A DNA stretch of 64,000 bases from an uncultured delta proteobacterium (GTDB taxonomy: Bacteria > Myxococcota > Myxococcia > Myxococcales > Myxococcaceae): the NCBI GenBank assembly GCA_963776345.1, contig CAVZMH010000015.1:352001-416000 (forward strand), written 5' to 3'. Numbering within the stretch: position 1 is the first letter of the stretch; each line of letters begins with the position of its first letter. The translations under genes and the position numbers were made by a program. The notes below the pieces were generated by a model. The model had not been told where the DNA came from. It searched no databases and saw nothing but the letters and a program-made list of their open reading frames with translations. This document shows, piece after piece, positions 47,833 to 50,478 of the stretch.

Positions 47833-49104
47833 ATGCGAGTCTCCCGCGTTGCGCTCGCGCTCCTGATCGCCCTCCTCCAGAGGCCCGCGCTGGCGAGCGA
47901 CGACGAGGACCTGCTCCGCGAGGCCGAGCGGATGTCCCGGATGCAGTCCGGCGCCGCGGCCTCACCCGAGGAGCTGCGGGCGCTGGTCGCCGAGCTGCTC
48001 CCCCGCGTGGGCAAGGTGATGCGGCTCCCGGTCCCCTCCCGGGTCGAGGTGAAGGTCGTGTCGCGCGACGAGGCCCGGGCCGCGCTGCTCGCGGTGCTGC
48101 GCCGCGACTACCCGGGCGACACGCTCGAGCGTCTCTCGGAGTCCCTGGCGGCGGTGGGTCTGGTCGCCGCCGGGACGGACCTGCGCTCAGAGGCCCGGTC
48201 GCTGTACGGCAGCAACGTCTCCGGCTTCTACGACCCGCACCAGCGGCGCCTCTACCTCCTCGCGGACCAGCCCCTGGCGGCGCAGGCGCTGGTCGTCGCG
48301 CACGAGCTGGCGCACGCAGTCCAGGACGAGGCCGTCCGCCTCGACGCAGCCTCGCAGAAGGTGCGGGCCTCCGAGGACGCCCAGCTCGCGCTCTCCGCCG
48401 CCATCGAGGGGCAGGCGCAGCGGGTGGCCGCGCTGGTGCTCGCCGGCGAGGCCGGAGGGACGGGCGAGGACGGGCTCGATCTGGGAGGCTTCCTCACCGA
48501 GGCGGCCGCGGCCAGCGCGGAGATGGCCGGGGGACAGTCGTCCGTGCCGTGGCTGGGGATGCAGCTCTCCTTCCCCTACGCCGCCGGGGCGAAGCTGGTG
48601 GCCGCCGTGCAAACCGCGAACGACCCCGCTGCGACGTCGCTCCTGCGCCGGCTGCCCCGGTCCACCGCGCAGGTGCTGGATCCGGCGCTCTACCGAGCGG
48701 ACGAGCGGCCCCGGGAGGCGCGTCTCGACCTCGCCACCCGGCTCCCCGGGAGCTCGGCCGTCCACGCCACCACGCTCGGCGCCGCGAACCTCGACCTCTT
48801 CGGCGAGCTGCACGGGGGCGGAGAGCTCGGCCGCGGCTGGCGAGGCGACCGCCTGGAGACGGTCCGCCGGGACGGCCAGCTCTGCGCCGTGTGGGCGGTG
48901 GCCTTCGGTTCCCCCGAGGGAGCGGACCGGCTGGTGAAGGCCTGGAGCGCGGCGCTCGGGGGAGGCGTCGGCGGGCCGGCGACCCAGCCGGACGGCTCGC
49001 GGTACCTCGTGAGGCAGGGTGGCGCCGTGGCGGTGCTGCTGGAGAACGTGCCGGCGGACCGCGTCGCCGAGCTGGTCTCGGCCGCGGCCACCGCGTTCAG
49101 GTGA
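47833..49104 (+). CDS. secreted putative zinc metallopeptidase (HEXXH)
   Basis: Signal peptide; GFYDP, AHELAHAVQD, AIEGQA, FPY, GWRGDR. Confidence 0.7.
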   Translation: MRVSRVALALLIALLQRPALASDDEDLLREAERMSRMQSGAAASPEELRALVAELLPRVGKVMRLPVPSRVEVKVVSRDEARAALLAVLRRDYPGDTLERLSESLAAVGLVAAGTDLRSEARSLYGSNVSGFYDPHQRRLYLLADQPLAAQALVVAHELAHAVQDEAVRLDAASQKVRASEDAQLALSAAIEGQAQRVAALVLAGEAGGTGEDGLDLGGFLTEAAAASAEMAGGQSSVPWLGMQLSFPYAAGAKLVAAVQTANDPAATSLLRRLPRSTAQVLDPALYRADERPREARLDLATRLPGSSAVHATTLGAANLDLFGELHGGGELGRGWRGDRLETVRRDGQLCAVWAVAFGSPEGADRLVKAWSAALGGGVGGPATQPDGSRYLVRQGGAVAVLLENVPADRVAELVSAAATAFR

Positions 49105-49112
49105 CGCCCAGG

Positions 49113-49493
49113 CTACTTGCCGGACTTCGCGGGCGCCGCGAGCCCGCGGATGTACGCCACCACCGACTTCACTTCCGCGGACGACAGCTTGGCCGCCGGC
49201 ATGTCCTTGGACAGTCCCTTGGCGGGACCGCCGCCGGTGATGACCGCCGTCAGGAACTCGTCGGTGCGCTTGGAGAGGGCGGCCTTGTCCGAGAAGTCCG
49301 CCGGCTTGGTGGTGTAGTACGCCGCGTCCTCCCCGTCGCCCTTCCCGGTGACGCCGTGGCAGCTCACGCAGTCGCGCTCGTAGATGGCCTTGCCCGCGGC
49401 GGCGTCGGGCTTCGCCGGCGCCGCAGCCAGCGACGCGACGGAGCCCAGGACCACCGCCGCTCCGGCAGCCCGCATCCAGTTCCGGACGTGCAT
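49113..49493 (-). CDS. periplasmic monoheme cytochrome c
   Basis: Signal peptide; CVSCHG.TGKGDG; MPA axial Met. Confidence 0.88.
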   Translation of the reverse strand: MHVRNWMRAAGAAVVLGSVASLAAAPAKPDAAAGKAIYERDCVSCHGVTGKGDGEDAAYYTTKPADFSDKAALSKRTDEFLTAVITGGGPAKGLSKDMPAAKLSSAEVKSVVAYIRGLAAPAKSGK

Positions 49494-49576
49494 GCGATTC
49501 CCTCCTCGTGGGTCCGGGGGGCAGGCCCCGCCCCGGACCGTCAAAGGCCGGCGAGCCTAGCCTGCCCCGGCCGCCG

Positions 49577-49987
49577 CTACGGCCTCGACGTGGGCTTCCC
49601 CGCGTCTTTCCAGCCCTTCAGCCCGGAGGCGAGCACGCTCACCCGGGTGTAGCCCGCCTCGACCGCCCGACCGGCGGCCGTGTGCGAGGACGTTCAAAGC
49701 TTGTTGGAGCAGTAGAAGACGAGCGGCGCGTTCCTGTCCGGAGGCAGCTCCTTCTTCACGTCGTAGTCATCGAACGAGCTCAGGAGCTTCGCCCCGGGGA
49801 TGACGCCGTTCTTCTCGCGGAACTCCGCGTCGTTGGCGTCCAGCACCGTCGCCGGGCTCCGCGGGTCCTTCTGCATCGACGCGAGCTCGGGCACCTCGAT
49901 GAAGCGGAACTTCTCCTTGGGCTCCGCGGCGAGGGCCAGGCCCGAGGCGAGCACCAGTTGGAGGGCGAGAATGGGGGAGCGCGTCAT
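49577..49987 (-). CDS. exported rhodanese-domain selenoprotein (Sec at UGA 49696-49694)
   Basis: Frame continues through TGA as FYCSNKL-U-TSSHTAAGRAVEAGYTRVSVLASGLKGWKDAGKPTSRP* and completes the rhodanese fold; SECIS-like hairpin follows the UGA. Confidence 0.82.
49655..49693 (-). promoter_or_regulatory. bacterial SECIS-like stem-loop
   Basis: After UGA: lower stem CCUC/GAGG, upper stem GGCCGCC/GGCGGUC, apical loop GGUCG starting 21 nt after UGA. Confidence 0.72.
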
Positions 49988-50062
49988 GGTCGGCGCTCCT
50001 GCTAGCCGGTCCTCCCCCCGGCCGGCAAGCCGGTTCCCTGCACCCCACCCGCACTCGGCGCT

Positions 50063-50239
50063 TCAGCCGACGTGGTGGATGGTGGGAGCGGCGGCCGAGG
50101 CGAAGACGCCCGCGGTCACGAAGTTCCGGACGATGGCGCCCGAGCCGCCGAGCCCGACCACGGCGAAGATGGCGCCGGCGAGGATGAGCCCGAGCGAGTG
50201 GCTGTGGCGGGTGGCGGAGAAGAGGGTGTCGCGGGTCAT
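50063..50239 (-). CDS. small (58 aa) membrane protein
   Basis: ATG after GGAG; one TM; preceded by a sigma54-like promoter. Confidence 0.55.
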   Translation of the reverse strand: MTRDTLFSATRHSHSLGLILAGAIFAVVGLGGSGAIVRNFVTAGVFASAAAPTIHHVG

Positions 50240-50276: not shown

Positions 50277-50292
50277 TGCACGGCCTCTGCCA
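50277..50292 (-). promoter_or_regulatory. sigma54-type promoter
   Basis: TGGCAGAGGCCGTGCA (GG-N10-GC), about 38 bp upstream of the ATG at 50239. Confidence 0.55.
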
Positions 50293-50478
50293 GGCTGAAT
50301 CCCAGCAGTCTCCACGACTTGAGAAACCCGGCCGTCGCGCCCGGAGCTACGGGGCCCGGCACCTGTTGCGGCGGCCGTCTCAGCTCCGGCGTGGGCGAGG
50401 GTCGGACCTCGCCTCCCCCCGACCTCCGGCAGCCGCCGGTTGGCGACAACGAACGAGCCGCCCAGAATGCCTCCCCCG

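Follow-up and report, generated by a model that had tools for sequence, protein, structure and literature searches.

A rhodanese gene whose frame continues past an in-frame TGA

The stretch of DNA that we analyzed (64,000 nt; hereafter the window) carries on its minus strand a small rhodanese gene (49987..49577 by translation) that the open reading frame list ends at 97 residues (49987..49694), directly after the peptide FYCSNKL. The preliminary description had claimed that this frame runs on for a further 38 codons, and our translation agreed: the TGA stands in the context FYCSNKL-U-TSS (U denoting the TGA), and 38 sense codons (TSSHTAAGRAVEAGYTRVSVLASGLKGWKDAGKPTSRP) follow it before a TAG is reached. 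The positions of the gene, its features and its neighbors are collected in Table 1.

We looked for the codon in other sequence data. An independent DNA contig, X8, spans the TGA and leaves it unchanged, with all 15 of its differences listed; only X8 was counted as confirming the codon, as some differences were undisplayed for contigs X1 (1 of 21) and X4 (6 of 27). A contig from an RNA run, X19, covers 49541-49788, which is not proof of transcription, and its differences were listed in part.

The N-terminus of the protein consists of MTR, a hydrophobic stretch and ALA|A, which, judged by eye, resembles a Sec-pathway signal peptide. Residues 1-20 have low pLDDT values (55-61) in our AlphaFold2 model, and homologs have comparable leaders or lipobox-like leaders. 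The export claimed earlier is supported by this leader, and we regard it as highly probable that the rhodanese is exported.

Table 1. Features at the rhodanese locus (positions in the window)
Feature	Position	Strand	Remark
Monoheme cytochrome c gene, signal-like leader	49113..49493	-	PF00034; co-oriented, 83 nt downstream of the rhodanese gene
Conserved motif CAGGCTAGGCT in the gap ahead of the cytochrome c gene	49554..49564	-	Possible separate promoter element
Full read-through coding sequence	49577..49987	-	136 aa, single-domain rhodanese, Cys93-x4-Sec98 loop
SECIS-like hairpin CGGCCGCC-GGUCG-GGCGGUCG	49660..49680	-	Inside the codons for T-A-A-G-R-A-V
In-frame TGA, predicted Sec98	49694..49696	-	TGA/Cys alternation in 66 loci
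Codon of Cys93 (TGC), at the catalytic position of canonical rhodaneses	49709..49711	-	Loop alignment with 6mxv and 2hhg
Predicted signal peptide, residues 1-20	49928..49987	-	Cleavage likely after ALA; by inspection
Candidate rhodanese promoter TTGCCG-N18-TAGCAG	49999..50028	-	Proposed from a conserved motif, by eye
58-aa hydrophobic small gene, unannotated	50063..50239	-	Neighbor
Sigma54-type -24/-12 site CTGGCAGAGGCCGTGCA	50277..50293	-	Upstream of the 58-aa gene

Selenocysteine machinery in the source genome

The source genome (G000) is 5.1 Mb long, about 72% GC and 98% complete. The preliminary description had proposed a check for selA, selB, selC and selD, and all were found above their curated cut-offs: selA at 509 bits, selB at 309 bits, selD at 378 bits and tRNA-Sec at 70 bits. 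The selD gene itself has an in-frame TGA. In four genomes where neither selA nor selB matched over the cut-off (G027, G043, G045 and G055), the site corresponding to the TGA had only Cys; two of these genomes (G045 and G055) gave weak matches to the tRNA-Sec model (51-53 bits). One genome with a TGA version, G016, which is 89% complete, gave no selA match, yet selB and tRNA-Sec were present.

A crude genome-wide screen for Sec genes returned 59 candidates, mostly noise and one convincing, with filters that passed over both the rhodanese gene and selD. Outside the window, a thioredoxin-like gene (L169; G000:C15, about 34867, minus strand) has an in-frame TGA in the context NLWMPG-U-GVC (UxxC), with a 7-bp hairpin lying 16 nt past it; this is a probable second selenoprotein of the genome.

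TGA and Cys codons at the same site in homologs

The site that is TGA in the window was TGA in 34 of 66 homologous loci and a Cys codon in the other 32, which is the pattern of Cys or UGA that the preliminary description had said should be looked for. The 66 loci were drawn from the 30 best loci in 61 related genomes (19 TGA, 11 TGC), 23 more distant loci and 14 further ones, with one locus (L050, TGC) missed by the pattern; ten same-genus repeats, two unrelated weak matches and six loci of other types were left out. A broader sample of 301 genomes from the phylum, one of them (G205) unpublished, had matches at E ≤1e-20 in 110 genomes, and 64 of the 135 matches carried one TGA by a by-eye count in which the position was checked in the fetched loci only. 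Protein databases showed the effect on annotation: among the 120 best matches, 110 end at the UGA, four residues past the catalytic Cys, which bears out the claim that gene callers truncate this gene, and the other 10 are full-length CxxxxC proteins. Cys also occupied the site in all 112 new proteins of one homolog set and in 142 of the 148 of another, and both loop Cys were invariant in a 26-row alignment.

Quick trees (67 rows, and 41 rows with the hairpin codons masked) gave 4-5 changes of label between Sec and Cys, but the starred branches forced only one, and an AU test on the masked 41-row set was compatible with all Sec versions forming one clade (p 0.567); we do not claim repeated Sec/Cys switching. 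In one subgroup (L089-L093 and L167) the loop region contains an additional, third Cys (U-(H/L/M)-A-C-H), giving CxxxxUxxC, and the same HACH motif occurs in a Cys version from the Sec-less genome G043.

A hairpin that accompanies the TGA

The preliminary description had also claimed a SECIS hairpin with bacterial geometry, and this is present: downstream of the UGA the transcript can form an 8-bp stem with a G-led 5-nt GGUCG loop, 21 nt from UGA to loop, with an energy of -16.6 kcal/mol for positions +11..+40. These values fall within the bSECIS model as given in PMC13188914 (loop of 3-9 nt, G in the first two loop positions, 16-37 nt from the UGA, MFE at most -7.5 kcal/mol). Stability was rejected as stand-alone evidence, since the folding z of -2.57 for a 41-nt fragment moved close to zero in longer ones (0.02 for 57 nt, -0.41 for 81 nt). 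As for background, 8288 of the 88200 TGA triplets in G000 (9.4%) have a hairpin after them under a loose definition, and 693 (0.8%) have one of this narrow geometry.

The weight of the hairpin as evidence therefore comes from comparison of homologs and not from its folding energy. Stems of 6 bp or more whose loop lies 20-22 nt downstream were found in 32 of the 34 TGA loci (the exceptions, without a good hairpin, being L095 and L100) versus none of the 32 Cys loci, and the mean energy of the +11..+40 segment was -15.0 kcal/mol in TGA loci versus -7.5 kcal/mol in Cys loci. Stems of 6-7 bp at other spacings occurred in two Cys loci, L115 and L166 (2 of 25 Cys rows, some of them repeats). Across 33 distinct Sec sequences, 88% of the cells were paired versus 25-56% when the partners were slid by 1-3 columns, and there were 10 two-sided changes; we take the pairing statistic as supportive and not as a probability, because the sequences share ancestry and one of them supplied the structure. 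Synonymous codon choice also pointed to the RNA: the Gly codon was GGT in all 21 Sec versions encoding AAGRA, as against GGG (L072) and GGC (L115) in Cys versions with the same peptide. This constancy points to a constraint acting on the RNA.

Because the Sec machinery is present, TGA alternates with TGC, and the hairpin is confined to TGA versions, we consider it very likely that the UGA is recoded as Sec98, and the same three lines of evidence support the earlier placement of Sec at the second Cys position of a YCxxxxC rhodanese loop. Were the TGA a true stop, leaving a truncated protein or a pseudogene, one could point to the 97-residue form held by the databases and to a hairpin that, by itself, is unremarkable in a genome of 72% GC; however, many genomes share the identical TGA (34 loci), the frame beyond it is conserved, and the hairpin tracks it. 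An assembly error, for its part, would have to be reconciled with the unchanged codon in X8. We consider either of these very improbable, and the comparative sequence data already contradict them.

Fold and active-site loop of the predicted full-length protein

The 136-residue protein matched Pfam PF00581 (Rhodanese) over residues 34-128, a region that spans the UGA, with 44.7 bits against a gathering score of 22.2. With Cys placed at position 98, AlphaFold2 gave a model of mean pLDDT 90.5 (26-row alignment) in which a strand (89-92) leads into the active-site loop (93-99), followed by a helix (100-110), a strand (116-119) and a second helix (122-128); a 97-residue product would be without the last three elements. 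Foldseek searches matched the model to rhodanese domains (6mxv, 2hhg, 3nhv and 1qxn), and Cys93, which is invariant in the 26-row alignment (A1), aligned with the FYC of the 6mxv and 2hhg loops, i.e., with the first loop position. By profile score, fold and a Cys at the start of the loop, the protein thus belongs to PF00581. Relative to the canonical six-residue sulfurtransferase loop there is a two-residue insertion, with position 98 inside it, so that sulfurtransferase activity is not assured.

We also looked to longer homologs for fusion clues. The eight found (219-255 residues; only near lengths were searched) are tandem rhodanese pairs with no informative partner domain. In several of the two-domain proteins (P0123, P0125, P0137, P0202 and similar) a CxxxxC domain stands in tandem with a canonical single-Cys domain behind a signal-like leader, and the tandem forms carry names from Elusimicrobiota and Bdellovibrionales.

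Comparison with known selenocysteine rhodaneses

A 2026 review (PMC13188914) tabulates five forms of Sec rhodanese, of which form 1 has the motif UxxS (WP_010941598.1); the forms are defined by domain and Sec motif in PMC9312934, where form 1 is rated as predicted. As printed in the supplement to PMC12013277, the form 1 loop reads FYCGGVTUVLS in a protein with a signal-like N-terminus, and the same supplement has further CxxxxU examples (FYCGGPTU and YCASGTU). The Sec position is that of the window's protein: in both, the catalytic Cys is followed by four residues, Sec and xxS, and then by a helix-G-Y-strand pattern, and by eye on the printed motifs the two share YC-x4-U-xx-S (YCSNKLUTSS versus YCGGVTUVLS). 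Since a published predicted rhodanese has Sec at this position, the Sec site is not new. The published examples of form 1 type, as printed, are 250 to more than 400 residues long, contain additional domains and belong to other lineages (WP_010941598.1 is Geobacter-type and more than 400 residues), whereas the Myxococcota protein is a stand-alone domain of 136 residues with a CSN(K/R)L-U loop.

No NCBIfam model reached its cut-off with the 136-residue protein. The best match was to TsoB (NF045694, a rhodanese/DsbD fusion-like protein, form 5), which, by the motif UxxxxU in the review (PMC13188914), agrees with the present protein in having Sec at the second of the two loop positions; however, TsoB is a fusion of 572 profile positions with two Sec, against CxxxxU in a single domain here, and the match (residues 74-134 to profile positions 97-157) scored 38.6 bits, far from the cut-off of 805. 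Form 3, rhodanese_LYCAU (NF041203, CxU), is likewise a small rhodanese with Sec in its active-site loop, but its Sec lies two residues after the catalytic Cys rather than five, and the match scored 30.8 bits where the cut-off is 115. A different Sec rhodanese with the motif C-x-U-P-(N/A)-E, which agrees with that published for form 3 (CAUPNE), turned up at L101, L103, L104 and L106 (G049, G002, G048 and G006), three of these loci being fused behind a hydrophobic segment (DedA-like, by eye). E. coli PspE and the Wolinella polysulfide-sulfur transferase (1qxn; TM 0.67 by Foldseek) resemble the present protein in being single exported rhodanese domains with a Cys at the loop start, but in neither does a lengthened loop bring in a second Cys or Sec, PspE having one Cys only according to PMC2593051.

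For myxobacteria, a 2006 table lists 11 selenoproteins of Anaeromyxobacter dehalogenans with no rhodanese among them (PMC1794560), and the deep-Sep supplements (PMC12013277) contain no Myxococcota name. Our literature search found no paper on myxobacterial selenoproteins and, among the papers listed, none with a rhodanese CXXXXC motif, although published selenoprotein surveys may already list members. What is new is a branch of 136-residue single-domain predicted Sec rhodaneses across Myxococcota that gene callers have missed; no new recoding mechanism and no new Sec site is revealed.

Neighboring genes and the cytochrome c

The preliminary description had placed the rhodanese gene between a small gene preceded by a sigma54 site and a periplasmic cytochrome c to which it might be redox-linked. 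The sigma54-type site does lie upstream, and TGG(C/T)A-N7-TGCA is conserved in all nine printed same-genus loci that have the small gene, which itself recurs in 10 of the 11 own-genus loci and matches no Pfam or NCBIfam model. We nevertheless assign this site to the small gene and not to the rhodanese gene, because in the printed same-genus loci an oppositely oriented gene of about 160 codons, absent in the window's genome, lies between the two, and because the rhodanese gene has an upstream motif of its own. This motif, TTG(C/T)NN-N17/18-TA(G/C), precedes the start in the window and in all nine same-genus loci printed (by eye); a sigma70 consensus scan found no promoter at the rhodanese gene. 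The intervening opposite gene (L023-L032) encodes a lipoprotein-like product with an FPHELRH (HExxH) motif. Several Cys versions of the family (L036, L040, L041, L047, L050, L051 and L063) often stand beside pdxA-like and surA-like genes (by eye on printed N-termini), which is probably housekeeping synteny.

The cytochrome c is present as described, with one CxxCH, by inspection of the His/Met type, and no Cys beyond the CxxCH. We considered whether it and the Sec rhodanese are dedicated redox partners in the periplasm that oxidize or reduce sulfur or selenium, and judge this improbable. The two genes adjoin in 11 of 11 own-genus loci, co-oriented and about 40-85 nt apart, both products have export-type leaders, and rhodanese genes elsewhere accompany sulfur-reducing cytochromes, as in the ext cluster described in PMC5877670 and PMC13510729. 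Against this, none of the 19 loci outside the genus has a CxxCH within about 1.5 kb, none was seen by eye among the open reading frames listed around 13 further Sec loci (flanks of about 1-4 kb), and a rhodanese-family match was found in none of 19 other loci with homologs of the cytochrome, one of which is uninformative, as it lies on a same-genus contig that starts a short way upstream of the cytochrome. Within the genus an unrelated convergent gene is nearly as conserved (9 of 11 loci), the motif before the cytochrome gene (CAGGCTAGGCT exactly in the window and five of eight same-genus loci, with one mismatch in the other three) may be that gene's own promoter, and the cytochrome is without a catalytic Cys. 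The neighbor is as described; the proposed redox link is weakly supported, amounting to no more than genus-level synteny (11 of 11 versus 0 of 19). The convergent gene (47833-49104, plus strand) encodes a DUF6782 / Hvo_1808-like putative metallopeptidase. Conserved operon context was rejected, as there was none outside the genus, and the printed loci (by eye for the 13 further Sec loci) showed no conserved neighborhood there that would point to a pathway.

Proposed function

We favor, with moderate confidence, a role in sulfur or selenium transfer in which Sec98 acts as the resolving residue. Reasoning from rhodanese chemistry, Cys93 would take up sulfane sulfur, with polysulfide, thiosulfate or a persulfide as the donor, or possibly a selenium analog. 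Sec98, to judge from the invariant second Cys/Sec of the family, would then attack the Cys93 persulfide, so that sulfide is released or the sulfur passed on, and the Cys-Sec selenenylsulfide left behind would be reset by a periplasmic thiol reductant, for which the thioredoxin-like protein L169 is a possible candidate. The proposal mirrors the release of sulfide that is described in PMC2593051 when a dithiol accepts the sulfur of a rhodanese. As a whole, the account of a 136-residue exported rhodanese with hairpin-aided Sec insertion that carries sulfur and supplies the resolving residue itself seems to us somewhat better than even.

The principal rival is that this is a real selenoprotein whose Cys/Sec pair works on a rhodanese scaffold as a thiol-disulfide-type redox switch or as a site that binds or reduces a metal or metalloid, and not as a sulfurtransferase. 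The rhodanese fold is also used for roles other than sulfur transfer. The lengthened loop is without the usual sulfurtransferase sequence, both of its Cys are invariant in the 26-row alignment, several Cys versions have extra N-terminal segments rich in Cys and His, and one Sec subgroup has the third Cys (HAC). On the other hand, the top structural matches are all of the rhodanese family, sulfurtransferases and the Wolinella polysulfide transferase (1qxn) among them, a Cys homolog (L034) lies directly upstream of a putative tandem-domain sulfurtransferase (printed N-terminus, by eye), and no metal-resistance context was seen in the neighborhoods printed. We consider this rival rather unlikely, and prefer sulfur or selenium transfer with a resolving Sec. 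Bolder still would be to see here an overlooked and widespread minimal periplasmic selenoenzyme of myxobacteria, whose Cys/Sec pair strips or reduces sulfane sulfur or selenium alone and which in this soil genus is coupled to a monoheme cytochrome c of its own, the two making up a two-component redox module for sulfur or selenium in the periplasm; we hold this to be a long shot.

Reading the gene through its TGA corrects a systematic annotation error, in which relatives end at the UGA in the databases and in many cases are named hypothetical. It also extends a predicted Sec site, seen so far for the most part in longer proteins with several domains, to a small protein that stands alone, and the close Cys-only relatives offer a convenient natural Sec/Cys pair for a first biochemical test of the second loop residue.
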